This document shows positions 3,441 through 28,072 of a stretch of DNA of 64,000 bases, piece after piece; position 1 is the first letter of the stretch, and each line of letters begins with the position of its first letter. Made by a program: the position numbers and the translations under genes. The stretch comes from Escherichia phage phiE142. The DNA is taken from sequence record NC_055709.1. One strand, 5' to 3'. The notes under the pieces were generated by a model. The model was not told the DNA's origin and ran no database searches. It was given only the letters and a program-made list of their open reading frames with translations.

Positions 3441-3782
3441 TTAAAAGAATTTAAATTTTTTCTTGGTTCGTTCATTAAAAGCTTGTTGTACCTGCATTGT
3501 AACACATTTTTCAACATGTGGTGCAAGTTCTGCTTTTCTGTCCTGGTCAAGAACTGCAAAGTCCATTACGATTTTACCATCAACCCAGTCTAGTTTTGTA
3601 ATATAGACTATATGATGAGAACCGTCTTCAAGTGTAATCAGAATCTCTTGAATGACATTTTCCATTGCTGAACGGATAATTTTAAGAGATTCATTAAACA
3701 CTCGTTCTTTGCGAATGTCTTCCCCTTCCGAAGAAGGGGATTCATCAACGATTTCTAGATTTAAATCATCGAGATTATTCAT
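3441..3782 (-). CDS. 40: gp40 head vertex assembly chaperone
   Basis: position between uvsX and 41; track start is TTG, trimmed to ATG at 3782 just after uvsX stop. Confidence 0.7.
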   Translation of the reverse strand: MNNLDDLNLEIVDESPSSEGEDIRKERVFNESLKIIRSAMENVIQEILITLEDGSHHIVYITKLDWVDGKIVMDFAVLDQDRKAELAPHVEKCVTMQVQQAFNERTKKKFKFF

Positions 3783-4947
3783 CGAAATCTTCCATTTCGT
3801 CAAGGTCGTTTTCTATATCTGCTGCAGATGGAGCATCAGAAGTTTTAACCGGAACTTTAGTTGTTGCTTTGCAATTAATAAGGTCATTAACAGCGTCATC
3901 AACTTCTTTAATAGAAGAGATAGCACCTAGTTTATATTTAGTTTCAATTGCGTCACGAAAAGGTTTGTGTTTAAACAACGGACCCCAGAATTCTACACAA
4001 TCAGTAGCTTTAGCACGCCACGATTTCTCTTCACGAATCATTTCACCTGTTTCTTCGTCAAGGAATTCACGAGCATACCAACCAGCTTTAGGCTTAACAA
4101 CAAATCCAATTTCAGTTGCCATTTCTAACAAGCCACTGAATGGATCAATACCACCATCAAAATTAACTGTGATTGGGAAAGTAGATTTCTCTTTAACTGT
4201 ACGAGATTTTTCTGCTTTCAACGTGAAGTCATAACCGGTCAATTCTGTACCTTCTTTAACCTGACGTTTAGAGATAAAGAATACAGTGTTAGCAGAGTAA
4301 AGAATACCTGTACCACCACCCATAATCTCTTTAGGATATAGTCCGCCGATTTCCATTGCTGTATGGTTGATTGCAACACATGGAATATCTTTAATAGTCA
4401 GATACGGGGTCACAATACGGAAAAGAGATTTAAGTGCCTTAGCACGAGACATATCACCTACGACTTTCTCGTTCAACGCATCTTCGGTTTCTTTCTTAGA
4501 TGCAGTATTACCGATTGAATCGATAAAGATAATAACTTTATCACCGCGTTCAATTGCATCAAGCTGATTAGTCATATCAACTTTAAGTTGTTCGACAGAT
4601 TGAATCGGAGTATGAACTACACGGTCTAAATCAACACCCATTGAACGAAAATAAGATTCTGAAGCACCAAATTCTGAGTCATAGAACAAACAGATTGCAT
4701 CTTTATATTTCTTCATATAAGCTGCAACCATAGTTAGTCCAAACAATGTTTTAAAATGTTTAGAAGGTGCAGCAAAAATAGTCAAGCCTGATTGCAATCC
4801 TGCATTCAGAGCACCACCTAGTGCAATATTCAACATCGGAATACGAGTAGGGACTTCATCACGATTATTAAACAGCTTAGACTTAGTCAAGTCTGCAGTC
4901 ATTTTAGAAGTAGAAGCTTTAATCAGACGAGATTTTAAATCAGACAT
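3775..4947 (-). CDS. uvsX: UvsX RecA-like recombinase
   Basis: 390 aa RecA-fold sequence, T4 UvsX-like N-terminus; ATG verified. Confidence 0.95.
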   Translation of the reverse strand: MSDLKSRLIKASTSKMTADLTKSKLFNNRDEVPTRIPMLNIALGGALNAGLQSGLTIFAAPSKHFKTLFGLTMVAAYMKKYKDAICLFYDSEFGASESYFRSMGVDLDRVVHTPIQSVEQLKVDMTNQLDAIERGDKVIIFIDSIGNTASKKETEDALNEKVVGDMSRAKALKSLFRIVTPYLTIKDIPCVAINHTAMEIGGLYPKEIMGGGTGILYSANTVFFISKRQVKEGTELTGYDFTLKAEKSRTVKEKSTFPITVNFDGGIDPFSGLLEMATEIGFVVKPKAGWYAREFLDEETGEMIREEKSWRAKATDCVEFWGPLFKHKPFRDAIETKYKLGAISSIKEVDDAVNDLINCKATTKVPVKTSDAPSAADIENDLDEMEDFDE

Positions 4948-5046: not shown

Positions 5047-5595
5047 TTAACGAGCCCATTTGATGATTTCTGTAATCAAATCATTACGTTCGCTTGCATT
5101 AAATCCTATAACTTTGTTAGCACCATCATGATTAAGTAATTGATACGTTTGGATTTTGTTATGAATTGCAAACTCTTCAAAATGTGAAATGACTGTATTA
5201 AAACCGAATGAAGACAAAGTAATAAGGTCGTCTTCAAAACTTTCAGTCATTTCGTTACGTGTTAAAATAATTGTGAACACGTCATGGTTTTGGCAAAGAC
5301 GAACATAATCCTGCTCATAAACATCAAGAACCGAGTCAGCATCTTGTCGAATACGTCCATAAACCCAGTTACTAATATATCCACGGTCTAACAGATAAAT
5401 CTTAGTAGGGTCTAAATAATTCAACATCGTTTCGAAACAGCCAACTTCATTTCGAGACTTAACATCGAAACGTCCATCAACTGTTCGTTTAGGGAAATCA
5501 ATCTTTACATATCTTTCACTAATTTCCATTATGTCATTAATGAAAGTTGTTTTACCAGCATTATCCGGGCCATCTACTAAAATAATTTTAGCCAT
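5047..5595 (-). CDS. P-loop nucleotide kinase-like protein (thymidylate-kinase-like)
   Basis: Walker A GPDNAGKTT and DRGY motif; sits in the T4 beta-gt slot. Confidence 0.55.
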   Translation of the reverse strand: MAKIILVDGPDNAGKTTFINDIMEISERYVKIDFPKRTVDGRFDVKSRNEVGCFETMLNYLDPTKIYLLDRGYISNWVYGRIRQDADSVLDVYEQDYVRLCQNHDVFTIILTRNEMTESFEDDLITLSSFGFNTVISHFEEFAIHNKIQTYQLLNHDGANKVIGFNASERNDLITEIIKWAR

Positions 5596-5596
5596 T

Positions 5597-6496
5597 TTAT
5601 TCCTCGATTACGACATCTTCGTATTTAGGTATATTATACGGCGAAGAAATTAAAGCATTAAAGTAGATGAACTCACCAAGACCTGGATGGAATACTTCTT
5701 CAGGATTTTCGAAATATTGAATCTTCGGACGTCCTTTAAGAATTTGGTAGTACTCAGTTTTAGTTGGTTTAAAAATTCTAATCAGCGCTTCTTCAGGATA
5801 CTTATTTCTGTCGAAGCTATTATTTGGATCGGTTATATAAAGCGGTTGACCTAATTGAATTGCACATTCAACCACTTGTTCAAAATGATAACACGGATCA
5901 CTAATTCGAAATGGATGAAAAATACCATCTACATGAATAGGAGCCAAATCACCTACAAGACGCTGCATGATGGAAGGACGTATAACTTTCTGCGTTACGA
6001 TAATCTTATTATCATCTGCGCCAGCGTTAACCAGCACTTCCTTTTGACGTTTATTCAACACAGTTGTTTGGATTGAACGATTAACCGACAACATGTCGGT
6101 TTTTAAGAATTCGTCAATATAAAAACGTGGTTTATTAGGGTCTGCAGTGATATTGAAATTGAATTCTACATCAAAAGCGCCGTCATATCCAGTGATATCT
6201 GTGATTAGAAAATCACAATCATAATAAGCAATTAATGAATCAACCACAAATTCATTTTCAGACCAGAAATATTTACGGGTGTTATACGCGTTATCTTTAT
6301 ACCATAATGGAACAAACTTAAATTCTGGAAAAAGACGTTCGCATTCTTTAATATCAGATGCATTACGTGGATATGTAATCACATCACCCGGATTAGCACG
6401 GTGCAAATGAAGTTGGAAGTTGCCATCCTTAAGGATAGCATACTGTCCAGTTTCATAAGACCGCATACTCAAGATAGGTACGCGGAAAATAGCCAT
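5597..6496 (-). CDS. hypothetical 299-aa protein, candidate glycosyl/arabinosyl-transferase
   Basis: occupies beta-gt position between uvsX and 42; acidic D-x-D-like motifs; function inferred from context. Confidence 0.45.
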   Translation of the reverse strand: MAIFRVPILSMRSYETGQYAILKDGNFQLHLHRANPGDVITYPRNASDIKECERLFPEFKFVPLWYKDNAYNTRKYFWSENEFVVDSLIAYYDCDFLITDITGYDGAFDVEFNFNITADPNKPRFYIDEFLKTDMLSVNRSIQTTVLNKRQKEVLVNAGADDNKIIVTQKVIRPSIMQRLVGDLAPIHVDGIFHPFRISDPCYHFEQVVECAIQLGQPLYITDPNNSFDRNKYPEEALIRIFKPTKTEYYQILKGRPKIQYFENPEEVFHPGLGEFIYFNALISSPYNIPKYEDVVIEE

Positions 6497-7212
6497 TAGT
6501 CAAGGAATCCTTTAACATAATCAAAATCACGTTCAAACACATGGGCACTTACCATGGTATGAGTATAATCACCAACTTCTACACCGCATTCGTTAGCGAT
6601 ATAATGAAGTAATTTTCCTTGGAGATAAAAATCCAACTGCATAACAACAGCACAGTTCTGAGAACGCATATGACAGTGGGTATAAAGCTTACCATCACGA
6701 ATATAATAAGTCACTGAGTCAGTACATGGATATTCAAGCGTTTCATCCGAATCAAGCAAAGCCTGATCAGAACTTTCTAGAATTTGGAACACAACTCTTC
6801 GAGAGTTAGGCTTCTCTTTAAGTTCTTTTAGAAGAGCTGGTAATTGGGCCGCAATGCGAGGACCATAGAAAGTGTTGAAGTTCGCCGGCAAAACATCTGA
6901 TTTTGGTTTAGAAATAAATTTAGCGACATTAGGATATGCCTTAAACGCTTCTTCTGCGTTGGTACCACCAGAAATCATAAACTTCCAGAAGTCTTCGGCA
7001 TATTCATAAGAGATGCGGTTAATACGTGGGTCGGTCATTTTGAATGATGATGGAGTGTCAACAACTACTGTCATAGACCCAATTTCATTACAACGTCCAA
7101 TACGAGAATCAGTTACGAATTCCGGGTTTTCTAAAATTTCACGATTGACTGCTTTAAATGCGGTTTGAAAATCTGCGGCTTTGATATATTTCATTGTGTT
7201 ATGTTTTCCCAT
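6496..7212 (-). CDS. 42: gp42 dCMP hydroxymethylase (thymidylate synthase family)
   Basis: C-terminal region PCTDSVTYYIRDG...HMRSQNCAVV resembles T4 gp42 active-site region. Confidence 0.85.
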   Translation of the reverse strand: MGKHNTMKYIKAADFQTAFKAVNREILENPEFVTDSRIGRCNEIGSMTVVVDTPSSFKMTDPRINRISYEYAEDFWKFMISGGTNAEEAFKAYPNVAKFISKPKSDVLPANFNTFYGPRIAAQLPALLKELKEKPNSRRVVFQILESSDQALLDSDETLEYPCTDSVTYYIRDGKLYTHCHMRSQNCAVVMQLDFYLQGKLLHYIANECGVEVGDYTHTMVSAHVFERDFDYVKGFLD

Positions 7213-7254
7213 GTTTACCTCAATACAATTTATTATATACTCAATTCGTAAAGC

Positions 7255-7494
7255 TTATTTGAATTTCTTGACAATGTTGATATAACGTAAAGCTTCAGCA
7301 TCGATACTTCCAAGAACACTATGAAGAAATGCATCAGCGTAGTATTCCAATTGAACAGGTTCTTTAATCACTTTAGCCGCTTTAGTTTCAAAAAGGCCCA
7401 TCAGGGCCTTTTTAAGAATTTGTTCATTAGTGTTCAGTTTCATAGTCAAAATCTCTTCATTAAGTTGGTGGTTAAAAGTTTTTCTAGAAATCAT
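7255..7494 (-). CDS. hypothetical protein, 79 aa
   Basis: track ORF, ATG verified. Confidence 0.4.
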   Translation of the reverse strand: MISRKTFNHQLNEEILTMKLNTNEQILKKALMGLFETKAAKVIKEPVQLEYYADAFLHSVLGSIDAEALRYINIVKKFK

Positions 7495-8651
7495 TCCGGG
7501 TATCTCAAAGCGTCATCAGAGTTAGTTATATCAATAATAGATATAGAGTTTTCTGCTAACCCGTTTTTAGATAATTGACGTTTATAATATCTTTCACAAT
7601 ATGTACACGTCGTCCCGCAGATTTCATTAGCACAATCGAAATCTGGATGTCTGAACCACCTTTTTTCTAAAAAGCCATCTAACAAAGAGGTTTCAATATT
7701 TACTGTATGTGAAAACTCAGTCTCATTTTCAAGAGTGAAAATAGTCTCTAAAGGCTTCCACAGTTCTAACAAATTACCTTCAAACTTTTCAGAAGCGTAT
7801 GCTTCAAGAACTTTCAAAATGTAGTCTGTGCTACCTGTACGTCCTGAAACTTTGAATTGAGTGATACCAATATCATTATAAAGTTTCAAATCTTGAGGAC
7901 GAACAAAACGAGTTCTCAACCAGTTAAATGGGTCTGTATCACGAGCTTTAATACAGTGCTGCATAGGATATCCGTTTAAGGATTTAGCATCATCAGCGGT
8001 AACATCAGTACTATGGAAAATATAGCAAGAGTCACGATAGCTACAATGTGTTGTATACCCTTTACCAGCATTAGAACAGAACTCATTTACAAGAACTTCA
8101 AATATTATATTGTTCTTATTGCAAAACTCTGCTGCACGCTTCAGGAAAGAAACTGAACGGTTCTTATGAATTCCACAGCAGACCTTTTTGATATTATACT
8201 GGTCATGCAAGTATTTGATTTGAGTTACAGCATCGACATGTAGAATTGTTGAAACTTCAATCTCAATGTCTTTATTGACTTCACGAACAATTTCCATAAC
8301 AACAGGGTTAGCGATAGTAATACGCCATACGCCTATTGACCAAAGATACTGAACATAATCCTGAATAGCTTTCTTCTTCCACTCAACTAGTTCTCTTTTT
8401 GAACCAGGATTTATCGTGTTGAGTGTATAGTTAAAGCAAATACCTAATTCGTTACAACGTTTAACGTAATCTTCTAACATCTTTTTGTCAACGTCAGGAA
8501 GCCTAAAATCAGGTCTGGCTGCTACAAAAGCCATTTCTCTTGTAGAGCCATATACTTCGTTTATCAAGCTATTAGGATAAGTTTTATTGAGCTCTACGAT
8601 TTTATCGAGAAGAGCTAAATCAAAATTCGTTCCGATTTTAAAAGTATTCAT
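7491..8651 (-). CDS. Cys-rich 386-aa protein of unknown function (possibly TIM-barrel/peptidase-U32-like); candidate modification enzyme or transferase
   Basis: track start is GTG, trimmed to ATG at 8651; Cys clusters; no confident family assignment. Confidence 0.5.
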   Translation of the reverse strand: MNTFKIGTNFDLALLDKIVELNKTYPNSLINEVYGSTREMAFVAARPDFRLPDVDKKMLEDYVKRCNELGICFNYTLNTINPGSKRELVEWKKKAIQDYVQYLWSIGVWRITIANPVVMEIVREVNKDIEIEVSTILHVDAVTQIKYLHDQYNIKKVCCGIHKNRSVSFLKRAAEFCNKNNIIFEVLVNEFCSNAGKGYTTHCSYRDSCYIFHSTDVTADDAKSLNGYPMQHCIKARDTDPFNWLRTRFVRPQDLKLYNDIGITQFKVSGRTGSTDYILKVLEAYASEKFEGNLLELWKPLETIFTLENETEFSHTVNIETSLLDGFLEKRWFRHPDFDCANEICGTTCTYCERYYKRQLSKNGLAENSISIIDITNSDDALRYPE

Positions 8652-8708
8652 TTTTTTGCATCTCACGTTAATTGATGCGATGGTTTTTTGCAGGTCTTAC
8701 TTAAATTA

Positions 8709-9110
8709 TTATAGATTCGGTTTATATGATTTAAATGTTTCGAATTCGCCTTTATTCATAAGAGCTTTGAATTCGTCAGGACGCATAGCTTTGTCGTCGA
8801 TAATCCAATCATATACTGGTTTATGTGTTAGCAAATTATGGTACTTCAAGCCAATGTTTGCCAAGTTCTGAATCAGACTTGGGAGAATGTCAATTGCTAT
8901 ACGACCAGGACCTACTGACTTCATACCGCGAGCAGTGTAAAGCGTTATGGTATGCCCTGCATCATACAGGGCATTAATGGCAGTCACCATTTCGACGTCC
9001 GGTTTGAAGTTCACGTAATCACGATTGTTATTCCACTCTGTTATACAATCATCGACGTCAAAACAAAGATTAAGCATGTTTTCTACACGGTGCATTAGAT
9101 TCGTTCCCAT
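8709..9110 (-). CDS. small HAD-like phosphatase
   Basis: motifs FDVDD, ITLYTARG, KP, IIDDK consistent with HAD motifs I-IV. Confidence 0.55.
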   Translation of the reverse strand: MGTNLMHRVENMLNLCFDVDDCITEWNNNRDYVNFKPDVEMVTAINALYDAGHTITLYTARGMKSVGPGRIAIDILPSLIQNLANIGLKYHNLLTHKPVYDWIIDDKAMRPDEFKALMNKGEFETFKSYKPNL

Positions 9111-10780
9111 TGATGAGTGATATCGCCACCGATTGGACGATAGGAAACACCAGTTTCTTTATCAGTTAGTACCCATTTACCAGGATTTTTTGTAATCAGA
9201 GTAGCCGTTACAGGTTCTGCTACGTCATAACTAATAGAGCCATCTTGAAGTACACGGCCCATGTTACGTAATTGCTTAGTCAGAAGTTCCATACCTTTAT
9301 AATATGCGGCCACCGCTTTAAGTGGATTATTCTTGAAATAACCACCTAATGCAATCCAGATAATTGCCACTGCCAAATGATGATACTCGTTAAACGAACT
9401 CATCTTTCCATATTTGTAAACTAATGGATTGATGTTAATAGTCACATTACAAGTTGTTTCATCAATAGTAAACTGGCCCCAGGTCGGATTAGCGTTGAAT
9501 TCATCATAACCTGAAACAGCATAAAGCACTTTAGCTTCATCATACAATTTTGGCCCGTAAATCTTGGTTTCGCCAAAATATCCACGAGGGTCGATAAACT
9601 TGACTTCGCCGTTATCAGTAATCATAGTATTACTGAAGTTCGGGTCACCGTGAATAACAGAGTACTGTCCCTGAGAACGGTTATGATAACGAATAAGATG
9701 TTCTAAAGCTTGTTTCAACATTGGCTTCAGACGTCCAATCTTAGTGTAGTTCACGTGTGTGATTTTACCAAATGAATCAATCAATGGCTGAATGCTTTCA
9801 CAACGATCAATAACTTTCGTATAGAACTCTTTAGTGAAATCACGACGAACAGTTTCAGGACTTACAAAATAAGTGTCTGTGCTGAATTTCAGTGCATCTA
9901 AAATTGCATCAACAATTTGTGGACGAGCAAGACTTGATTTGGATTTAATATATTCAAATGCCGGCTTACCTTTAATACGTTCCATTTCAAAATTATTTTC
10001 ATTTACCGAAACTAACTGAGGAACCGAATCTGATTTCACTTTCAAATACCATGAAATCTCATCTTTTTGAAGAGCTCGACCTTGTTCGGTTAACGCGAAT
10101 TTAGTTACAGTTTCTTCGCCAATTTCAACTGCATTAAAACTACGATTAAGTTCACGAACTTCATGAGCTTTTTCAAGTTTAGGCATATCACCTAAATCAA
10201 TTAGATTCATAAGCTCTGATTTATTGAATGCGCTGCTGTAAAGGAATTCTACGAAATCACGTCCTTTGCAGTATTCATGAATTTCCTCATCAGTAGAACC
10301 CATATAGAATTCCCAGTCTTTGAACTGATAAATTCCTACAACATTACCGCCTGTTGCACCTACATTAGTGATATTTTCACCGTCGAAATTATATCGACAT
10401 TCGTCACCCTTAACATAGATTGCGTTAACATTCCAAGACCATGAACCAAAATCAGGAATAATATCGCACCAGTTAACAACTACGTTATGCCTGTCTAAAT
10501 CTTTGTGTAATTTAGCAAGAGCATAAGCAGAACCATACGCTTCATCAACTGTACGAATAGTCACATTGAACCCTTCTTGCTCACAATAAGCTCGAACGGT
10601 TTCAGCAAATTTTGAATGAACTACTACAATAATTTCATCTGCGCCAAGGTCAGAATAAATTGTATACAAATTGCTCAGAATAGTGTCTTGTTTATAGTTA
10701 ACAAGCACCTTAGGAATATGATGCGTTATTGGATACAAACGAGTTGCCAGTCCAGCACCAAGAATAACAGCTTTTTTCAT
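9095..10780 (-). CDS. bifunctional sugar-1-phosphate nucleotidyltransferase (N-terminal) / APH-type anomeric sugar kinase (C-terminal)
   Basis: N-terminus ILGAGLATRL (G-x-G-T-R-L NTP-transferase motif); C-terminus HGDPNFSN...IDPRGYFGE kinase loops. Confidence 0.7.
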   Translation of the reverse strand: MKKAVILGAGLATRLYPITHHIPKVLVNYKQDTILSNLYTIYSDLGADEIIVVVHSKFAETVRAYCEQEGFNVTIRTVDEAYGSAYALAKLHKDLDRHNVVVNWCDIIPDFGSWSWNVNAIYVKGDECRYNFDGENITNVGATGGNVVGIYQFKDWEFYMGSTDEEIHEYCKGRDFVEFLYSSAFNKSELMNLIDLGDMPKLEKAHEVRELNRSFNAVEIGEETVTKFALTEQGRALQKDEISWYLKVKSDSVPQLVSVNENNFEMERIKGKPAFEYIKSKSSLARPQIVDAILDALKFSTDTYFVSPETVRRDFTKEFYTKVIDRCESIQPLIDSFGKITHVNYTKIGRLKPMLKQALEHLIRYHNRSQGQYSVIHGDPNFSNTMITDNGEVKFIDPRGYFGETKIYGPKLYDEAKVLYAVSGYDEFNANPTWGQFTIDETTCNVTININPLVYKYGKMSSFNEYHHLAVAIIWIALGGYFKNNPLKAVAAYYKGMELLTKQLRNMGRVLQDGSISYDVAEPVTATLITKNPGKWVLTDKETGVSYRPIGGDITHQWERI

Positions 10781-10821
10781 GTTGTGGTCCTCATTGGTAA
10801 GTAGGAGTATTGTACACTATT

Positions 10822-10965
10822 CTAGTTAAAGCATTCATACTTTGCTTGTAGTCCAATCATAATCCATCCAATTACAAGTGTTGGAATCATTACCGGAGCC
10901 GTTAAGCTCCAGTAGATAGTCATGACAAGCATCAATAGTAAAAGTCCTATTGTTATTGCTTTCAT
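10822..10965 (-). CDS. small hydrophobic membrane peptide, 47 aa, translationally coupled (ATGA overlap) to upstream SIS gene
   Basis: manual translation MKAITIGLLLLMLVM...; below track threshold. Confidence 0.35.
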   Translation of the reverse strand: MKAITIGLLLLMLVMTIYWSLTAPVMIPTLVIGWIMIGLQAKYECFN

Positions 10966-11597
10966 TGTTCGCCTCGTAACATGGCACCTAGTGCACCGCC
11001 TGGATGGAACTTAAGGAAATCATTAGAGGTAAATCCACGTTCAGACGAAAGGTTGATAGCAAACGTATCGATAAGCGCTAACAACAATGTAGTGGACATT
11101 GTCGGAGCTAAAGAGTTCTCGTCAACTTCTACCGCGATACCAGTACAGAACGTATAATCAAAAAGAGCTTCGTATTCTTGTGGAATGTCAGGGTTACAAT
11201 GTAACAGAATCTGTTTAACCTGAGGACGAATCATACGAAGATGTTTAGCAACACCTATCATTTCTTCAGTCTTACCAGAACGACTAATATGAATCAACAC
11301 ATCATTAGGCGCAATGAATCCTGCATCACCGTGAGAATAATGCCCAGTGTTCAAGTACATACTCGGGATACCGAGTGAAGCAAATGTCTCAGAAGCTTTA
11401 GTTGCGATATTAGCGTTCTTACCAACACCTGTAATAATTACACGACTTTCATAATTACTCAGTCCTGGGCGTCGAAGAGTTTCTAGAATAGCATTATAAC
11501 GAGCAGGGTTTTGACTAATTACTTTGGCCATAGCGGCCAAAGAAGAAGCTTGTTTTATGATTGCGTCAATAGCGATAGTAATAGGAGTAGTTTTCAT
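10962..11597 (-). CDS. SIS-domain sugar-phosphate isomerase, KdsD/arabinose-5-phosphate isomerase-like
   Basis: ITGVGKNANIATKASETFASLGIP...SHGDAG closely resembles the KdsD SIS core. Confidence 0.75.
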   Translation of the reverse strand: MKTTPITIAIDAIIKQASSLAAMAKVISQNPARYNAILETLRRPGLSNYESRVIITGVGKNANIATKASETFASLGIPSMYLNTGHYSHGDAGFIAPNDVLIHISRSGKTEEMIGVAKHLRMIRPQVKQILLHCNPDIPQEYEALFDYTFCTGIAVEVDENSLAPTMSTTLLLALIDTFAINLSSERGFTSNDFLKFHPGGALGAMLRGEQ

Positions 11598-11637: not shown

Positions 11638-14349
11638 TCAAAAATCGAACATATCGAATAGAGATGCTTTCTTCTCGTAATCGAGTTTCGCTGCTGATGT
11701 GAATCCTTCAAGTGGTTTAATAAATGTCTTCTCAAGGAGAACAGTGTAGTCCATCCAATGAAGTACGTCGTCTTTAATTAAATCTGTGATTTCAGTACCA
11801 GAAGGCCATGCGATACATTTATCACCGAATGGGTTTCCTTCACGTAAAGGCAGAACATATACTTTTTCACCTTCTACAACTTGTGGAGCATCAATATTAC
11901 CTTTGATAGCCCGGTTATACGTCAGAATTCCACGAATATGGAACGGACATTTGGGACCAGGGAATCCACCTACATCATATTTAGCAATGTTATTCGCAGA
12001 AGATACCGACGCGATGCTAATATAATTCAATTGACGGAATTCTTTTTCAAACTCTTTAAAATATTCTTGTAATGATTCTTCACCTTCTTGAAGCATACGA
12101 CGAATACATTCTTTAAGAGCTTTCTGTACCGCTTTAGGAGTTGAAGATTTCTGTGTTTCGAGACCCATGATTTTGAGTTTAGGCTCAGCGTAACGAGTAC
12201 CTTCCATATCCCACACGTTTAATGCATAACGTTTCTTACCAGTCCAGAATCCGCCAATACCTTTAGAACCAAGCGGAGGACCAGCGATAGCTTCTCGGTC
12301 CATGAACATTAAGTGTTGTTTATTGTTCATGTATTCACACATTTCACGGAAACCTTTATCAATAGCTGGTTCCATACGTTCACGTGCGAACTTATCTAAG
12401 AAGTCTACCCAATGGTTGGTATCACGGAATTTAGATTCACCAACCTTATCGATAATTTTATCAGCAGATACGTAAATAGAGTCTGTATCACCATAAAGAA
12501 CGAAAGCTTCACCTTCTGTACCACAAACTTCATTCAGATATTCATTAACTTTACGTTCAATCCACTGTAAAGCCATTTGCCCGAATGTTGTGATTGCAGT
12601 AGCATTACGCAAATCGTAATAACGGAACCATACGTTACCAAGTGCACCATAAAGCGAGTTGATAAGCAATTTACGGTTAATTTGTGCAGTCATACCTGCA
12701 ACTTCAGTACGTTGAGCTCTAAACAACATTTCATTAAGAGATTTAGCAGACAACTTTTTAATCTTTTCTTTAATCTCATCGCTGAAGTCGAAACGATAAT
12801 CAACATCTAATGGTTCGTCAACAGAAAGATTAGGATTATGCAATGCCTCTTTAATTATTTCACCATTACGTTGAGCTGCAAGCATGTAACCTTTATGTTC
12901 TTTACGCTGATTAAAGACCTTAGTGATTTCAGTTGGAACTACACCGTCACGGTCTTTATAATACATCATGCCGTTAGGAGAGCAACTGTACACATCTGAA
13001 GGACGTTCAGCGATTGCGTTAATATAATCATGCAGTGGAGCTACTTTAAACGTTCCTGCTATTGTTTCCGGGCTAATATTCACTTGGCGAATAATACTTG
13101 GATACAGAGACGTAAGGTCGAAACTCATTACATATTTGTATCGATTTGGAATAGGTTCCTTAACAAAAGCGCCAGGATAAGGTTGAACCGGGTGAGAACG
13201 ACCTTGTGGAATCACCTTGTTTTGTTCTTTAAGGCTATTAAAAATAATAGCATCCCAAGTTTTAATTGGACTGAACACAGATTGAATCTGAATTTTAGCA
13301 TAATAACCCATGTCCAAGCTCAAGTTGATGAACTGACGCTTAGAATCAATTTGCAATACACGATACACGTCGATAATGTTATAAGAAATATATCGTTGGT
13401 GATTGCTTTCACGAAGCTTAGAAATAGGGCCGTCATATTTCAGTTTACCAATGTTCAATTCAAATTCTGAAATGTAATCCAGAGAATACGACGGTTGATT
13501 GGTAAAAGAGAATTTTTTGTAAAGGTCAATGTAATCAAGAACAGAGATACCGAACAATGTAATGATTTCACGAGAACCATACATGTTTTCGATAACTTTA
13601 ACACGAGTTTTACGATGTGGTGATAAACGTTTCGCAGTAGATTCGCCAAAAATATTCTTGATTCGGTTATACACATATGGAATATCAAATGACTCAACGT
13701 TCCATCCAGTCAAAATGACAGGAGTTTTCTGTTGCCAGAAGTTGAGATATTCCATCAACAATTCTTTTTCGTTATCGAACGGCATATAAATGATTTTATC
13801 GATAATTTCGGACGGAACTTCATCACCACCTTGTTCTTGAAGCTTAGCAGCGATTTCAATAGACCATTCTTCCACATTACCATATGGAGAATTCAATAGA
13901 TCAAATACGTAGAACCTGTCGTCAATTGAGTCATAATGGGTGATAGCATCAATCGGATGTTTTGCTTGTGACGGCTCAGGGAATCCATCCGGAGATGTTA
14001 CTTCGATGTCGAAGTTAGCCACACGAATTTTTGTATGGTCGTATTTGATTTCATAGTTATAAGTGTCAGACAAATACGCCAATTTGAAATCGTCCATGCC
14101 AAGTGCTTCAAGACCGATATCTTCCATGCGTTTAATCCATTGAGACGCATCACGCATATTAGCGAACAACTTACGAGTACACGGCTTACCGTAGATATCG
14201 AAATATTTCGTAGCCTGACTTTCTGGACAATGAGCAAACAGTGATGGTTTATATTCTACTTCACGAGTACGTTCACGGCCATTAGAATCGATGTAACGTT
14301 CAAAAATTGAATCACCAATCTGTTCAACCGTTAAGTAAAATTCTTTCAT
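11638..14349 (-). CDS. 43: gp43 DNA polymerase (family B), RB69-type
   Basis: 903 aa; N-terminus MKEFYLTVEQIGDSIFERYIDSNGRERTREVEY matches recalled RB69 gp43; exonuclease and polymerase motifs. Confidence 0.97.
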   Translation of the reverse strand: MKEFYLTVEQIGDSIFERYIDSNGRERTREVEYKPSLFAHCPESQATKYFDIYGKPCTRKLFANMRDASQWIKRMEDIGLEALGMDDFKLAYLSDTYNYEIKYDHTKIRVANFDIEVTSPDGFPEPSQAKHPIDAITHYDSIDDRFYVFDLLNSPYGNVEEWSIEIAAKLQEQGGDEVPSEIIDKIIYMPFDNEKELLMEYLNFWQQKTPVILTGWNVESFDIPYVYNRIKNIFGESTAKRLSPHRKTRVKVIENMYGSREIITLFGISVLDYIDLYKKFSFTNQPSYSLDYISEFELNIGKLKYDGPISKLRESNHQRYISYNIIDVYRVLQIDSKRQFINLSLDMGYYAKIQIQSVFSPIKTWDAIIFNSLKEQNKVIPQGRSHPVQPYPGAFVKEPIPNRYKYVMSFDLTSLYPSIIRQVNISPETIAGTFKVAPLHDYINAIAERPSDVYSCSPNGMMYYKDRDGVVPTEITKVFNQRKEHKGYMLAAQRNGEIIKEALHNPNLSVDEPLDVDYRFDFSDEIKEKIKKLSAKSLNEMLFRAQRTEVAGMTAQINRKLLINSLYGALGNVWFRYYDLRNATAITTFGQMALQWIERKVNEYLNEVCGTEGEAFVLYGDTDSIYVSADKIIDKVGESKFRDTNHWVDFLDKFARERMEPAIDKGFREMCEYMNNKQHLMFMDREAIAGPPLGSKGIGGFWTGKKRYALNVWDMEGTRYAEPKLKIMGLETQKSSTPKAVQKALKECIRRMLQEGEESLQEYFKEFEKEFRQLNYISIASVSSANNIAKYDVGGFPGPKCPFHIRGILTYNRAIKGNIDAPQVVEGEKVYVLPLREGNPFGDKCIAWPSGTEITDLIKDDVLHWMDYTVLLEKTFIKPLEGFTSAAKLDYEKKASLFDMFDF

Positions 14350-19730: not shown

Positions 19731-19974
19731 TATACGCATCCTCAATACACGCTTCAGCCATTTTAAGAATAGAGCCAGGAGTATCGTTGTCCATTACATT
19801 AAAGCTAAATTCAATAGCCCAGTCGGTGCAGACATGAACTGCTTTAACTTCATTGCCTTCAACGCGTAATGGCTCAATCCAATACTTGATAGTGTTCTCG
19901 AATCCATCATCATCTTTAACGTCTATTTCAACTTCAAGCCCGAGCCCAGCATTGTTAAATTCATCTAAAGTCAT
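19717..19974 (-). CDS. hypothetical acidic protein (46.2 position)
   Basis: track ORF, ATG verified. Confidence 0.4.
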   Translation of the reverse strand: MTLDEFNNAGLGLEVEIDVKDDDGFENTIKYWIEPLRVEGNEVKAVHVCTDWAIEFSFNVMDNDTPGSILKMAEACIEDAYNDED

Positions 19975-20990
19975 TGTGTTGCCTCAATATAAAGTTCGTT
20001 GGAATATTTGACCAGCGCTTCTCTGTCTTCGTCTGAGATATCTGGAATCGCGTCAATATATTCTTTAATGATATCTTGAAGTGATTTAATCTCGATTTCC
20101 TGGTCGTCATCAGATTCAACACTGTTATCAACTTTAGAAACCATACGAAGAGAGTGAACTACTTTTTCAAGTTCAGATTCAAACTTAGTCAACTCTGAAT
20201 CAATTTCTGATACTATAACACGTAAGGCTAGATTAGTATAATCAGAATAATTGATTTTGCCTTTAAACGGATAAGTGATTCGTCGATGCCATGTTGTTTC
20301 ATTAGGAATAAATTCCATACGTTCAACGTCAGTGTCAAATACCCAGAATCCGCGAGGATCATTCTCATCACCTGCAGTAAGGGTCCATGGTGTCCCAATA
20401 TATTTGACGTTAGCAGCTTCAGAGATTGTGTGGAAGTGGCCGGACCAGACTTGTTTATAGGTCTTTAAGAAATCAGGTTCAAGCCCATGAGACTTCATTC
20501 CTTTATAGAAATAGAAGCCGTTCAGTTCCCAGTGTCCAACACAATACGCAGCAGAAGAAGTCTTGATGTGCTCTAAGATTTCACCTGTATTTTCTTCACA
20601 CATCCATGGAACGATATCAATCAGACATCCGTCAAAATCTACAGTAGTTGGATGTTCATAAATAGTAAAGTTTTCAAATTGAGTTAACAATTCAGAAACA
20701 GTGTTAGGTGTTATTGTATTCTTAAACGCCATGTCATGGTTTCCTATCGTGACATGAACGTGAATGCCTGCTTTAGAAATCATATCAACGATTTCACGAT
20801 TGAATTCCATTGTACGATGTGTTATTGCTTTACGGACGTCAAACCAATCACCGTACTGAATCCAAGTTTTAATCCCGTGTTTCTTAGAGTATTCAATTGC
20901 TTGTCGAATACCATCACGTTGAATATCTTGAACCCACGGGTCGTCTTGTTTGACTCCGATATGGAAGTCGCCTAAGTGCAAAATTTTCAT
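19971..20990 (-). CDS. 47: gp47 recombination nuclease subunit (Mre11/SbcD-like phosphoesterase)
   Basis: MKILHLGDFHIG metallophosphatase motif; 339 aa. Confidence 0.9.
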   Translation of the reverse strand: MKILHLGDFHIGVKQDDPWVQDIQRDGIRQAIEYSKKHGIKTWIQYGDWFDVRKAITHRTMEFNREIVDMISKAGIHVHVTIGNHDMAFKNTITPNTVSELLTQFENFTIYEHPTTVDFDGCLIDIVPWMCEENTGEILEHIKTSSAAYCVGHWELNGFYFYKGMKSHGLEPDFLKTYKQVWSGHFHTISEAANVKYIGTPWTLTAGDENDPRGFWVFDTDVERMEFIPNETTWHRRITYPFKGKINYSDYTNLALRVIVSEIDSELTKFESELEKVVHSLRMVSKVDNSVESDDDQEIEIKSLQDIIKEYIDAIPDISDEDREALVKYSNELYIEATQ

Positions 20991-21778: not shown

Positions 21779-21994
21779 TTATCTCATTAAATTAAAATAA
21801 AAACGTCCATCCTCTTCAATACAGAACTCATACTCAACTGGAGTCCCATTTATCGAAAATGACACGTCATGTGGGTTCAAAGGGTCGATGTCAAAATTAA
21901 TTTTAAATTCACGACCCAACAGTTTTACCAAATAAGGGATTGCTTCGTCAAAAGGTTCTTCTAAGTAGTTAGAGATGTCAATTGTCATCCTCAT
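21779..21994 (-). CDS. hypothetical protein
   Basis: track ORF trimmed to internal ATG; overlaps 3' end of gene 55. Confidence 0.3.
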
Positions 21995-22535
21995 ATAAAA
22001 AATCCAAACTAGGCGAATCGCTAACAACTTCCTTCTTTTCAGCCCCAGGAGCTTTATAAGCGGATTCTTCATAATGCGTCATTTTATCGTAGATGTCTTG
22101 AATAAACGTTTCATCTACCAACGCTACCATATCATCGTCATGACTGTCGTAGACATTATGAACGAAGTAACTATATTTCTTTGCAACTTCCTTACGCTCT
22201 TTTTTGATACGTTGGACAAAAGCATTAAAACAAGCTCGAGTTATGTATGCATGTGGGTTATTGTACTTAGTTTCGTCGAAATTATGAAGTCCCTTAATAG
22301 AGGCTTCAATCCCATCTGCAATCATCTCCTGCTTCCAAGACTGGGTATATCCTGAAAAGTTGAAACGTTTGGACAGGCCTTCGGCGATAAGCATAATTGC
22401 TAAACCGATGGTATCATTCTGACGAATAATTTTGTTTGGGTCTTTATTATTTAAGAGCTCCTTTTTCCACTCGATTATAGCGGCGAGAAGCTCTTTATTA
22501 TTCACATAGTTATTTTTAGGTTTTTGTTCAGTCAT
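21978..22535 (-). CDS. 55: gp55 late-transcription sigma factor
   Basis: [20 protein letters not shown]...[34 protein letters not shown] as in T4 gp55; TTG extension trimmed to ATG, giving 185 aa. Confidence 0.9.
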
Positions 22536-22557
22536 AAGTACCTCTTGGCTCAATTCA

Positions 22558-25787: not shown

Positions 25788-26258
25788 TTAATCATGTTTC
25801 CACACCCCATCGGTATTTGACCAAAGACGCTGATTATCTGATCCTCGCCACAGTTTTTTGGTCGGAAGATTTTTCTCATACTTCCCATCAATAATAACAT
25901 CAACATATTTAAGCATTTCTAGTTGTTTAATATCTTCAAACTTATATCCTGTCCACAACCAAATGCTTTTATTAGGATAAAGATTTTTTACTGTTTGAGC
26001 AATGCGATGAATAACATCTCGGTTATCAGGATAGAGAGGGTCTCCTCCGGTTATAGTTAATCCTTCTATATAATCATTATTCAAACATTCAATCAATTGT
26101 TCTAGTGTTTCACCAGTGAATGGAATACCATTTCTAGCATTCCATGTTGATTTATTATAACACCCTTCGCATTTATGCAAACAACCTGTAACGAAAAGAA
26201 CGACCCTGCATCCAGGGCCATTCACAAAATCGCAAGGATAAAATCTATCATAATTCAT
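25788..26258 (-). CDS. nrdG: NrdG anaerobic ribonucleotide reductase activase (radical SAM)
   Basis: Cys cluster CLHKCEGC; 156 aa; adjacent to nrdD. Confidence 0.9.
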   Translation of the reverse strand: MNYDRFYPCDFVNGPGCRVVLFVTGCLHKCEGCYNKSTWNARNGIPFTGETLEQLIECLNNDYIEGLTITGGDPLYPDNRDVIHRIAQTVKNLYPNKSIWLWTGYKFEDIKQLEMLKYVDVIIDGKYEKNLPTKKLWRGSDNQRLWSNTDGVWKHD

Positions 26259-28072
26259 TGGTGTTTAACCCTATGCATGATTTCTTTATTTTTACCGAGA
26301 TTAAATCCGCGTTCGTTCGGATTTCCCAAATAACCGCATGTTCTTCTTATGGTGTTCATCTTTTTAGGATCAGTTTCTCCACAAACTGAACAAACAAATC
26401 CGTTTTCAGTAGGAGTCATTTCATGAGTACTTCCGCATGTAAAACATTTATCCACTGGCATATTAACACCAAAATAATCTAAATGTTGTGCAGCATAATC
26501 CCAGACGGCCTCAAGTCCTTTTAAGTTATTTTTCATATCAGGAAGTTCAACATAAGAAATGTGACCACCTGTCGCAATGAAATGATATGGCGCTTCACGA
26601 GAAATCTTTTCAAACGGAGTAATATTTTCTTCTACTGAAACGTGGAAACTATTAGTGTACCAGCCTTTATCGGTAACATCTTTTACGCTTCCATATTTTT
26701 CTGTATCAAGTTTACAGAAGCGATAACACAAGTTTTCAGCAGGAGTAGAATACAAGCTAAAAGCAAATCCAGTTCTTTCAGTCCACTGTTTAAGATGAGC
26801 ATTCATTTTAGTTAAAATTTCTTGCCCAATATCACGACCGACAAGAATATTCAATTCATGAATACCAATATATCCTAAAGACACTGAACTTCTACCGTTT
26901 TTAAATAACTCAATTATGTCGTCATCAGGTTTAAGACGAACACCGAATGCACCTTCTTGGTAAAGAATAGGAGCAACAGTCGCTTTAACTCCTTTTAAGG
27001 AACTAATTCTACACATCAAAGCTTCAAAACATAAATCCATTCGTTCATTGAATAATTCAACAAATTTCTGTTCGTTAAATTGCGTTCCAATATAAGAATC
27101 TAATGCGATACGAGGAAGATTCAGTGTTACAACACCGAGATTATTACGTCCATCAAGAATTTCATTACCAGTCGAATCTTTCCATACGCTCAAGAAACTA
27201 CGACAGCCCATTGGAGAAACAGGAATAGATGAGCCAGTGATAGCTTTATTATTCTTAACAGAAATAATGTCAGGATACATTCTTTTGCTTGCACACTCTA
27301 GAGCGAGTTGCTTAATATCATAGTTCGGATCGTCTTTATAAAGATTAACACCCTCTTCGACAAACATAACAAGTTTAGGGAAAATAGGAGTTATTCCATC
27401 ACGACCAAGTCCTTTAATCCGATTTTTCAGAATTGCTTTCTGAATCATTCGTTCAGTCCAATCAGTTCCAGTACCAAATGTAATTGTTACAAAAGGCGTT
27501 TGTCCGTTTGAACTAAAGAGAGTATTTACTTCATATTCATAAGCTTGAAATGCGTCATATACATCTTTTTCTGTTTTAGATTGAGCATAATTCAGAATGT
27601 CTGGTATTTGCCATTTTTCTGCATCTTCAACATGTTTAGCGTATGTACGTTTAACATAAGGAGAAAGAACTTTATCGACATTCGCAAATGTAGTTCCGCC
27701 GTACTGATGTGAAGCAACTTGTGCAGTAATTTGTGCCATAATTGCAGTAGCAACACCAATCGATTTAGGCGTTTCAATTTGAGCATTGCCTAATTTAAAT
27801 CCGTTCTCAAGCATCCCCTTTAAATCGACTAAACAGCAATTGGTAAACGGAAGAGCAGGAGAATAATCAATATCATGCATGTGAATGATTCCGCTTTCAT
27901 GCGCATGCATAATAAAAGACGGGACCATATTTTTAGCAATGTGCTTAGACACAATACCAGCCATAAGGTCCCGTTGAGTTGGAAAAACACGAGAATCTTT
28001 ATTAGCATTCTCGTTCAAAAGATCTTTATTAGTTTTATAAATTAATCCTTCAATTTCTTTTTCAATTTTCAT
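26255..28072 (-). CDS. nrdD: NrdD anaerobic (class III) ribonucleotide reductase, uninterrupted
   Basis: 605 aa; C-terminal glycyl-radical motif RTCGY and Zn-ribbon Cys. Confidence 0.95.
   Translation of the reverse strand: MKIEKEIEGLIYKTNKDLLNENANKDSRVFPTQRDLMAGIVSKHIAKNMVPSFIMHAHESGIIHMHDIDYSPALPFTNCCLVDLKGMLENGFKLGNAQIETPKSIGVATAIMAQITAQVASHQYGGTTFANVDKVLSPYVKRTYAKHVEDAEKWQIPDILNYAQSKTEKDVYDAFQAYEYEVNTLFSSNGQTPFVTITFGTGTDWTERMIQKAILKNRIKGLGRDGITPIFPKLVMFVEEGVNLYKDDPNYDIKQLALECASKRMYPDIISVKNNKAITGSSIPVSPMGCRSFLSVWKDSTGNEILDGRNNLGVVTLNLPRIALDSYIGTQFNEQKFVELFNERMDLCFEALMCRISSLKGVKATVAPILYQEGAFGVRLKPDDDIIELFKNGRSSVSLGYIGIHELNILVGRDIGQEILTKMNAHLKQWTERTGFAFSLYSTPAENLCYRFCKLDTEKYGSVKDVTDKGWYTNSFHVSVEENITPFEKISREAPYHFIATGGHISYVELPDMKNNLKGLEAVWDYAAQHLDYFGVNMPVDKCFTCGSTHEMTPTENGFVCSVCGETDPKKMNTIRRTCGYLGNPNERGFNLGKNKEIMHRVKHQ

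Follow-up and report, generated by a model that had tools for sequence, protein, structure and literature searches.

We propose that the block at 5047-11597 of Escherichia phage phiE142 is a gene cluster of the RB69/HY126 type, predicted to replace cytosine with arabinofuranosyl-5-hydroxycytosine (probability roughly 0.88). The window analysed here is a 64,000-nt (64-kb) stretch of DNA from sequence record NC_055709.1. With arabinosyl-5-hydroxycytosine in place, phage DNA is protected against restriction enzymes and CRISPR nucleases, and the modification influences which defence systems can detect the phage. The cluster is already published (RB69, HY126, and DLP3, 2025-2026), including for phages 98-99% identical to phiE142. 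The initial annotation of this DNA, which treated the pathway as not established, has thus been overtaken, and the window adds nothing new to the core cluster, which is known from near-identical phages. The part worth pursuing is a gene for a U32-family protein within the block, together with its chorismate mutase partner.

Acceptor base, activated sugar, and transfer

The acceptor base is indicated by the thymidylate synthase (ThyA) homolog at 6496-7212. This protein matches Pfam Thymidylat_synt (E = 2.3e-15) and the Protein Data Bank (PDB) entries 9iqc, 9ir2, and 9iqu (E = 8e-161, 98% identity), deposited as "Thymidylate synthase" and presumably representing the HY126 enzyme crystallised by He et al. 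In an alignment with E. coli ThyA and T4 gp42, the catalytic Cys (E. coli C146) is kept and the substitutions L143E, D169N, and N177D are present. T4 gp42 retains Asp at E. coli ThyA position 169, and the Asp169 that marks a T4-type gp42 is Asn here. The protein agrees with RB69 gp48 at 236/238 residues. RB69 gp48 produces 5-hydroxy-deoxycytidine monophosphate (5-hydroxy-dCMP) with oxygen from 18O2, as a protein with flavin mononucleotide, and D169N is a predictor of 5-hydroxy-dCMP synthases according to the same authors (Lee et al. NAR 2026, PMC13326640). A flavin-bound crystal structure and an in vitro reconstitution are credited to phage HY126 in that paper's citation of He et al. (Nat Chem Biol 2026). 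By liquid chromatography-mass spectrometry and nuclear magnetic resonance (NMR), RB69 DNA contains mono- and di-arabinofuranosyl-5-hydroxycytosine, in which an ether oxygen attaches the sugar directly to C5 (PMC13326640). By this orthology, the 6496-7212 product is a predicted flavin- and O2-dependent 5-hydroxy-dCMP synthase, distinct from a gp42-type hydroxymethylase.

The initial annotation had instead envisaged a gp42-type hydroxymethylase making 5-hydroxymethylcytosine (hmC), with arabinose 5-phosphate (Ara5P) dephosphorylated, phosphorylated at C1, activated, and transferred to give arabinosyl-hmC. In 2018, RB69 DNA was reportedly assigned exactly this base. Synteny with T4 gene 42 and beta-gt agrees with that original report, and so does the wording "dephosphorylates Araf5p to Ara" among the first-draft roles that PMC13326640 tabulates (Table 1). 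We consider the scheme very improbable. The ThyA homolog carries D169N, unlike T4 gp42, and is all but identical to the enzyme demonstrated to form 5-hydroxy-dCMP with O2; NMR and mass spectrometry of DNA from RB69 (PMC13326640) and Mosigvirus NP (PMC13390438) find an ether link without a methylene, and the latter paper declares the 2018 assignment erroneous. The HY126 enzymology, as far as it is relayed in PMC13326640, also runs kinase first and phosphatase second. What stands of the earlier outline is an activated arabinose derived from ribulose 5-phosphate (Ru5P) and moved to a modified cytosine; its acceptor base, the "gp42" nature of the enzyme, and the order of kinase and phosphatase do not.

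The cluster lies between uvsX (3775-4947) and the gene 43 DNA polymerase (11638-14349), with all open reading frames (ORFs) on the minus strand, and occupies the T4 beta-gt and imm slots. Its members are as follows.

5047-5595, minus strand: thymidylate-kinase-like (Tmk-like) P-loop kinase (RB69 gp45), 182 aa; PHROG 761, Walker A
5597-6496, minus strand: GT-B fold glycosyltransferase (RB69 gp46:47), 299 aa; fold search
6496-7212, minus strand: predicted ThyA-superfamily 5-hydroxy-dCMP synthase (RB69 gp48), 238 aa; Thymidylat_synt, PDB 9iqc
7255-7494, minus strand: Mosigvirus-specific small ORF (RB69 gp49), 79 aa; no family
7491-8651, minus strand: U32-family Fe-S protein (RB69 gp50), 386 aa; PF01136
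8709-9110, minus strand: HAD-type phosphatase (predicted AfhF; RB69 gp51), 133 aa; PDB 9iqw, TIGR01689
9095-10780, minus strand: predicted bifunctional kinase/pyrophosphorylase (AfhE of HY126; RB69 gp52:53), 561 aa; NTP_transferase
10822-10965, minus strand: single-pass membrane peptide (RB69 gp54 slot), 47 aa; hydropathy
10962-11597, minus strand: predicted arabinose-5-phosphate isomerase (RB69 gp55), 211 aa; SIS

Read from 10962-11597 down to 5047-5595, the ORF junctions are -4, +41, -16, +57, -4, +42, -1, and +1 nt, and this range of -16 to +57 nt therefore indicates co-transcription and several translational couplings. Gene order is colinear with RB69 gp45-gp55, with protein identities of 95-99%. 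Nucleotide identity of the cluster to Escherichia phage phiC120 (Mosigvirus) is 98.8%, which places the phiE142 window in Mosigvirus on sequence grounds, and at least 80% of the block is covered in 150 phage records.

The three-enzyme set for UDP-arabinofuranose (UDP-Araf), i.e., the SIS isomerase, AfhE, and AfhF, is recognisable by domains, motifs, and PDB matches. The 10962-11597 product has the SIS domain alone (Pfam E = 4.8e-10), without the CBS pair; it scores 111 bits against TIGR00393 KpsF/GutQ and 106 bits against KdsD, matches the PDB arabinose-5-phosphate isomerases 3etn (E = 7e-25), 2xhz (E = 1e-18), and also 5uqi, and is identical to RB69 gp55 at 207/211 residues. Conversion of Ru5P to Ara5P has been proposed for the gp55-type isomerase (PMC13326640).

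The 9095-10780 product is covered over its full length by PHROG 4098. Its N-terminus holds an NTP_transferase domain (residues 3-100, E = 4.6e-10, motif GAGLATRL), and its C-terminus shows weak kinase-family matches (308-409) with the APH/choline-kinase-type motif HGDPNFSN at residue 377. We read it as a predicted bifunctional arabinose-5-phosphate 1-kinase and UDP-arabinofuranose pyrophosphorylase. A knockout of its Thanatos homolog, TH1_060, blocks phage growth (PMC12838424).

The 8709-9110 product, without a Pfam match, carries a HAD motif-I-like DVDD inside CFDVDDCIT and matches the capsule-biosynthesis phosphatase model TIGR01689 (E = 4.6e-13, a score under the family cut-off). Its PDB matches are 9iqw (E = 2e-87) and 1xpj (E = 7e-10); 9iqw is deposited as "Capsule biosynthesis protein", and we take it to be from HY126. 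Identity to RB69 gp51 is 126/128. By these matches it is a predicted arabinose-1,5-bisphosphate 5-phosphatase (AfhF). The longest ORF, from 9110, gives a 16-nt overlap with the upstream gene, and the start is ambiguous: RB69 and phiC120 annotate the ATG at 9095 (1-nt overlap, 128 aa), which may be the true start.

According to He et al. 2026 as reported in PMC13326640, the kinase domain of HY126 AfhE converts Ara5P to arabinose 1,5-bisphosphate (Ara-1,5-P2), AfhF strips the 5-phosphate, and AfhE then yields UDP-Araf. Because the route runs through Ru5P, Ara5P, Ara-1,5-P2, arabinose 1-phosphate, and UDP-Araf, the kinase acts before the phosphatase, the reverse of the dephosphorylation and anomeric phosphorylation that had first been suggested.

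Names given in databases (KpsF, capsule biosynthesis phosphatase, GlmU) might suggest that the sugar genes serve manipulation of the host envelope (Kdo, capsule, or lipopolysaccharide metabolism) rather than DNA modification. We give this almost no credence: the genes lie between replication genes, coupling links the cluster to an enzyme that modifies dCMP and to a DNA-type GT-B enzyme, and the orthologs are experimentally tied to arabinosylated DNA.

The 47-aa peptide (10822-10965) has one strong transmembrane segment at residues 3-21 (Kyte-Doolittle window of 19 = 2.17), belongs to PHROG 3610 (unknown function), and overlaps the isomerase stop with its start by 4 nt; Serratia phage LC53 has a 47-aa ORF (144 nt), annotated transmembrane, in the same slot. 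Derivation from a truncated T4 Imm was ruled out, as the similarity is not meaningful (17 residues, E = 0.085).

Two unassigned enzymes in the initial annotation now differ in standing: one is a GT-B glycosyltransferase, and the other is the U32 protein, which has no place in the scheme proposed there. PDB sequence searches with both proteins, including a 40-sequence profile, gave nothing useful, and fold searches were therefore used. The 5597-6496 product has neither a Pfam match nor a PDB sequence match; the fold search places it as a GT-B glycosyltransferase adjoining the ThyA homolog. It is a candidate for the first DNA arabinosyltransferase, transferring alpha-Araf onto O5 of 5-hydroxycytosine. 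The 5047-5595 product matches PHROG 761 "thymidylate kinase" (E = 1.6e-45), has a Walker A motif (GPDNAGKT), and is identical to RB69 gp45 at 181/182 residues. In T4-like and distant U32 loci alike, a Tmk-like gene travels with the hydroxylase and glycosyltransferase, and the 5047-5595 product is probably a kinase for the hydroxylated deoxynucleoside monophosphate.

Overall, the ThyA homolog would hydroxylate dCMP at C5 with flavin and O2, kinases would carry 5-hydroxy-dCMP to the triphosphate, and the polymerase would incorporate it, all as shown in near-identical orthologs. The sugar steps would likewise follow such orthologs: Ru5P to Ara5P by 10962-11597, C1 phosphorylation by the C-terminal kinase domain of 9095-10780, removal of the 5-phosphate by 8709-9110, and uridylylation to UDP-Araf by the N-terminal domain of 9095-10780. 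Fold and synteny suggest that the GT-B enzyme 5597-6496 would place the first arabinose on the 5-hydroxyl, that a glycosyltransferase encoded outside the window beside rIIA would add the second, and that the Tmk-like kinase 5047-5595 would phosphorylate 5-hydroxy-dCMP.

Several points weigh against this account. All of the phiE142 chemistry is assigned by orthology. Arabinosyl transfer by a gp46:47-type enzyme has not been reconstituted (PMC13326640), and the Thanatos homolog of the GT-B protein is reported to have UDP-xylose pyrophosphorylase activity (PMC12838424). Moreover, 5-hydroxy-dCMP is already phosphorylated by RB69 gp159, a gp1-type kinase (PMC13326640); the Tmk-like kinase may therefore be redundant or act otherwise.

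The remaining structural claims of the initial annotation hold. Its listed ORFs were all found on the minus strand at the coordinates given (the mechanical ORF for 7491-8651 extends to a GTG at 8666, and 386 aa are counted from the ATG), and its KdsD-like isomerase (SIS, the KpsF/GutQ/KdsD models, PDB 3etn/5uqi/2xhz), small HAD-like phosphatase (DVDD, TIGR01689, PDB 9iqw), fused nucleotidyltransferase/APH-type kinase (NTP_transferase and HGDPNFSN), P-loop kinase-like protein (Walker A, PHROG 761), and coupled 47-aa membrane peptide (transmembrane segment, 4-nt overlap) are all borne out. The same is true of the absence of an alpha-gt after gene 47: no ORF of that size follows, and those between gp47 (19971-20990) and gp55 (21978-22553) are at most 107 aa. 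Similarly, tblastn across the window finds no homolog of T4 beta-gt and no match to the second, RB69 gp3-type (PDB 9iqz type) beta arabinosyltransferase, an absence that concerns the window and not necessarily the phage; in RB69, the gp3 gene adjoins rIIA, beyond the region covered by the window.

The RB69 record NC_004928 (our locus L007, 8156-9056 and 3873-5559) splits gp46/47 and gp52/53, and the counterparts in the window, 5597-6496 and 9095-10780, are single intact ORFs. Lee et al. attribute both splits to sequencing errors (PMC13326640), and the intact ORFs therefore agree with that explanation.

The U32 protein and its chorismate mutase partner

The 7491-8651 product belongs to Peptidase_U32 (PF01136, 42.2 bits versus a gathering score of 22.4). 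Its AlphaFold2 model has a mean confidence (pLDDT) of 90.6, and the top PDB match in Foldseek is the U32 protein 5d88 (E = 8e-7, target-normalised TM score 0.73). It is identical at 383/385 residues to RB69 gp50, an ortholog that Lee et al. label just "sugar or heterocycle reductase", without discussion; chorismate and prephenate go unmentioned in their text, where anaerobiosis is solely the chamber for 18O2 labelling (PMC13326640). We propose that the protein may be a pyrimidine C5-hydroxylase that depends on prephenate but not on O2, with a cytosine (or uracil) deoxynucleotide, or else DNA, as its substrate; to this function we give even odds. A full-text literature search, which did not cover He et al. 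2026 and Mahler et al. 2025, returned nothing relevant that would connect phage DNA modification with U32, prephenate, or chorismate mutase.

Among the four E. coli paralogs, hhalign with the phage U32 profile selects RlhA (83% probability, E = 9e-6, 205 columns), with TrhP, UbiU, and UbiV at 9% probability or less. RlhA is the 23S rRNA 5-hydroxycytidine synthase, in which C169 and C176 are essential (PMC5727448). Prephenate and Fe-S clusters are required by RlhA, TrhP, and UbiU/V alike; for TrhP and UbiU/V, independence of O2 is stated explicitly, and prephenate is shown as the oxygen donor in the O2-independent ubiquinone pathway (PMC10990095). The phage family has ten invariant Cys: C158, C177, C192, C203, C209, C233, and the C-terminal C340-x4-C-x3-C-x2-C. 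Phage C203 and C209 align to RlhA C169 and C176; the other ligand candidates, C192 and C233, have no confident alignment. Both the first rank of RlhA among the paralogs and the match of these essential residues to invariant phage Cys count in favour of a hydroxylase function.

The invariant C-terminal cluster, residues 340-352, reads CANEICGTTCTYC (C-x4-C-x3-C-x2-C). The last three Cys of CANEICGTTCTYC fit the radical-SAM CX3CX-aromatic-C pattern, and several distant loci (L029 and L030; also L002 and L003) have a radical-SAM/SPASM gene placed between those for the Tmk-like kinase and the glycosyltransferase; U32 might bind a second Fe-S cluster or have a radical-SAM partner.

The similarity to RlhA also admits a different substrate, in which the U32 protein, with chorismate mutase in sister genera, would be an RlhA/TrhP-type RNA hydroxylase tuning translation on rRNA or tRNA, its DNA-modification neighbours being accidental. 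Besides RlhA being the best paralog match, the presence of tRNA genes and further translation modifiers in T4-like phages speaks for this idea. The phage protein lacks the long RNA-binding C-terminal part of RlhA (386 versus 653 aa), and lies within DNA-modification clusters in two groups of phages that are unrelated, frequently in translational coupling with a glycosyltransferase, polymerase, or dCMP deaminase. An RNA target is accordingly a decidedly improbable explanation, and we retain DNA or its precursors as the suggested substrate.

Under the proposed hydroxylase function, prephenate would supply the oxygen to the U32 protein, a donor role also suggested for it with RlhA, TrhP, and UbiU/V, and the protein would serve as an anaerobic alternative to the flavin enzyme, its product being passed on by the Tmk-like kinase. 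The known hydroxylase requires O2 and the gut is largely anoxic, raising the question of where 5-hydroxycytosine comes from in the habitat of the hosts; the U32 enzyme could make it there, where the flavin enzyme cannot work. The window also encodes an anaerobic ribonucleotide reductase, with an NrdG-like activase (25788-26258, minus strand; Fer4_12, Radical_SAM) and NrdD (26255-28072, minus strand; PF13597, E = 4e-171). The phage is therefore otherwise equipped for anoxic replication and deoxynucleotide synthesis, and the presence of NrdD/NrdG sharpens the question of cytosine hydroxylation without O2.

For sister genera, GenBank annotates the small ORF that directly follows U32 as a chorismate mutase. 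CM_2 (PF01817) scores above the gathering threshold near U32 in nine loci, from Kanagawa-, Winkler-, Kagamiyama-, Mosuguk-, Gualtar-, Teguna-, and Bragavirus and Shewanella phage Thanatos-2. The chorismate mutase start and the U32 stop overlap in Thanatos-2 as well as in the Kanagawa-, Winkler-, and Kagamiyamavirus loci; in the remaining genera, a second small ORF lies between the two. The Thanatos cluster is rearranged, yet U32 and chorismate mutase are kept together. Invariant columns of the phage alignment are R8, R25, K36, E49, S71, and Q75, which correspond to the AroQ catalytic residues. This linkage, together with that to 3-deoxy-D-arabino-heptulosonate 7-phosphate (DAHP) synthase in the distant loci described below, points to prephenate.

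In phiE142, the ORF at 7255-7494 overlaps the U32 stop by 4 nt and is identical to RB69 gp49 at 75/79 residues; only homologs of at least 80% identity were found. It has the slot and length of the Kanagawavirus chorismate mutase (79 aa). A diverged chorismate mutase was rejected: Pfam gives nothing at E ≤ 10, hhalign against the phage chorismate mutase alignment gives a probability of 0.2%, and the catalytic Arg/Arg/Lys/Glu/Ser/Gln pattern is absent. The ORF looks like a non-homologous replacement of chorismate mutase. Because of this replacement by an unrelated 79-aa ORF, prephenate would come from host PheA/TyrA in this genus.

Distribution of the U32 gene

A tblastn search finds the U32 gene in 220 phage records; among the organism names listed, all are phages of Enterobacterales or Shewanella, and none is an Acinetobacter or Rhizobium phage. 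For the ThyA homolog, the count is 372 records, among them 57 from Acinetobacter phages and 20 from Rhizobium phages. Acinetobacter phage Konradin and Pseudomonas phage PspYZU05 have the ThyA homolog immediately after the phosphatase gene. U32, with or without chorismate mutase, thus appears to be an accessory insert that is not found in phages of strict aerobes among those seen. The converse rule, that a facultatively anaerobic host implies U32, was ruled out by Dhakavirus Bp7 of E. coli, which shows that U32 is not universal in coliphages; only the absence from the strict-aerobe phages seen held. The Bp7 locus has the ThyA homolog, glycosyltransferase, bifunctional enzyme, and phosphatase, lacks U32 and chorismate mutase, and retains imm. 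Klebsiella phage Potts1 (Marfavirus) has U32 and no small ORF before the ThyA homolog, and Thanatos-2 has both the ThyA homolog and the U32-chorismate mutase pair. From these comparisons, the accessory part of the cluster is evidently fluid in evolution. The Thanatos paper offers no hypothesis for the origin of the hydroxyl on the modified cytosine (PMC12838424).

U32 homologs are abundant in metagenomes at 45-58% identity. A scan of IMG/VR yielded 47 U32 loci, 16 of them T4-like and 31 distant. The ThyA homolog lies within 725 bp of U32 in every T4-like locus (16/16), and chorismate mutase is adjacent in 13/16. Among the distant loci, chorismate mutase and/or DAHP synthase occurs within 622 bp in 12/31, four of these as fused DAHP synthase-chorismate mutase ORFs; an AfhE-like gene lies within 3 kb in 16/31, the isomerase is present in 9/31, and a glycosyltransferase of the 5597-6496 family in 14/31. 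A ThyA of the 5-hydroxy-dCMP-synthase type was found within 10 kb of U32 in 0/31. The ThyA-family match in locus L048 was rejected as such a synthase, as its canonical HLAPC with Leu at 143 marks an ordinary thymidylate synthase.

Individual distant contigs show the order Tmk-like kinase, optional radical-SAM/SPASM, glycosyltransferase, U32, and PolIII-alpha. Locus L022 runs histidine phosphatase, Tmk-like kinase, UDG, glycosyltransferase, isomerase, AfhE-like, U32, DAHP synthase, and epimerase, its DAHP synthase scoring 237 bits to DAHPS versus 63 to KDO8PS. U32 overlaps the gene for a TET-associated glycosyltransferase in L024, and a dCMP deaminase directly precedes it in L002 and L023. In gene arrangement, U32 in the distant phages is in the position held by the ThyA-type hydroxylase in T4-like clusters of aerobes. 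In a sizeable group of uncultured phages with PolIII-alpha-type polymerases, U32 could be the sole hydroxylase for base glycosylation, fed by phage chorismate mutase/DAHP synthase.

The metagenome contigs L003 and L004 carry a U32 homolog (L003 8001-9098) in an apparent cellular or prophage nucleoside-salvage island, with an NT5C nucleotidase, PnuC-type transporter, deoxynucleoside kinase, AlaX-like protein, radical-SAM/SPASM protein, and nucleoside deoxyribosyltransferase; the island also holds a second, divergent U32 (22% identity). This suggests that the U32 clade may act on nucleosides or nucleotides beyond phages too.

The company of arabinose genes leaves room for a sugar-side enzyme or redox helper, with U32 active in pentose tailoring or cofactor regeneration and the linked chorismate mutase serving another purpose. 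Besides the listing of gp50 as "sugar or heterocycle reductase" in PMC13326640 (Table 1), this view draws on the placement of U32 between the sugar genes and the ThyA homolog, on the AfhE-like gene within 3 kb in those 16 distant loci (with the isomerase too in nine), and on the pathway running without U32 in Acinetobacter, Pseudomonas, and Dhakavirus phages. The U32 enzymes characterised in the papers covered (PMC10990095, PMC5727448) are linked to (hetero)aromatic ring hydroxylation with prephenate, and none to sugars. Several distant loci also combine U32 with a glycosyltransferase, Tmk-like kinase, and polymerase only, or with dCMP deaminase only, i.e., with no sugar-activation genes and no other candidate for the acceptor hydroxyl, and the chorismate mutase/DAHP synthase linkage indicates prephenate. 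We consider a sugar or redox role unlikely and keep base hydroxylation as the proposed function.

That proposal must be weighed against the following. The similarity to RlhA is modest, its 83% probability resting on a single-sequence template, and in vitro hydroxylation by any U32 enzyme is not yet demonstrated (PMC10990095). No chorismate mutase is present in six frames of the 64-kb window. The pathway does without U32 in Bp7, the co-occurrence of U32 with arabinose genes fits a sugar-pathway role as well, and the distant loci were inspected within 10 kb on each side.

If base hydroxylation is the true function, a conserved and so far unexplained U32 gene would be explained, as the first U32 hydroxylase assigned to DNA modification. 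Prephenate-dependent hydroxylation would extend from RNA and quinones to DNA precursors, glycosylated-base pathways without a ThyA-type enzyme would be revealed in uncultured phages, and these would be the first phages known to boost the shikimate pathway for an oxygen-atom donor.

Comparison with known systems

The phiE142 cluster is closest to RB69 gp45-gp55 and the Afh system of HY126 (Lee et al. NAR 2026, He et al. Nat Chem Biol 2026, Mahler et al. Cell Host Microbe 2025). In phiE142, the 299-aa glycosyltransferase and the 561-aa bifunctional enzyme are each one undivided ORF, whereas the RB69 record splits each, and the counterpart of the second, gp3-type glycosyltransferase of RB69 would lie outside the phiE142 window.

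Relative to T4 glucosyl-hmC, the genes share the slots between uvsX and gene 43 and the same logic, with dCMP altered ahead of replication by a ThyA-superfamily enzyme and a sugar then put on the hydroxyl so created by a GT-B enzyme, presumably for restriction evasion. The predicted phiE142 base differs in being 5-hydroxycytosine, ether-linked and without a methylene, made with flavin and O2 instead of folate by an enzyme with D169N. The sugar differs as well, being arabinofuranose from a UDP donor made by phage enzymes, and the window is without alpha-gt or beta-gt homologs.

Acinetobacter phage DLP3 and Lazarusvirus, and likewise PspYZU05, have the same order of isomerase, bifunctional enzyme, HAD phosphatase, ThyA homolog, glycosyltransferase, and Tmk-like kinase. 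They differ in having neither U32 nor a small ORF separating the phosphatase from the ThyA homolog, and the Acinetobacter phages have two extra glycosyltransferases that lead to tri-arabinosylation.

Finally, the phage U32 protein shares PF01136, the U32 TIM-barrel fold, and a genomic link to prephenate supply with E. coli RlhA (ho5C2501), TrhP (tRNA ho5U34), and UbiU/UbiV (anaerobic hydroxylation of ubiquinone). Its sequence similarity to them is remote, its C-terminal CX4CX3CX2C cluster is distinct, its predicted substrate is likely DNA or a deoxynucleotide, in contrast to their RNA or quinone substrates, and Mosigvirus has lost the linked chorismate mutase. The 5-hydroxylated cytosine that RlhA produces is the same chemical change that the phage pathway requires.

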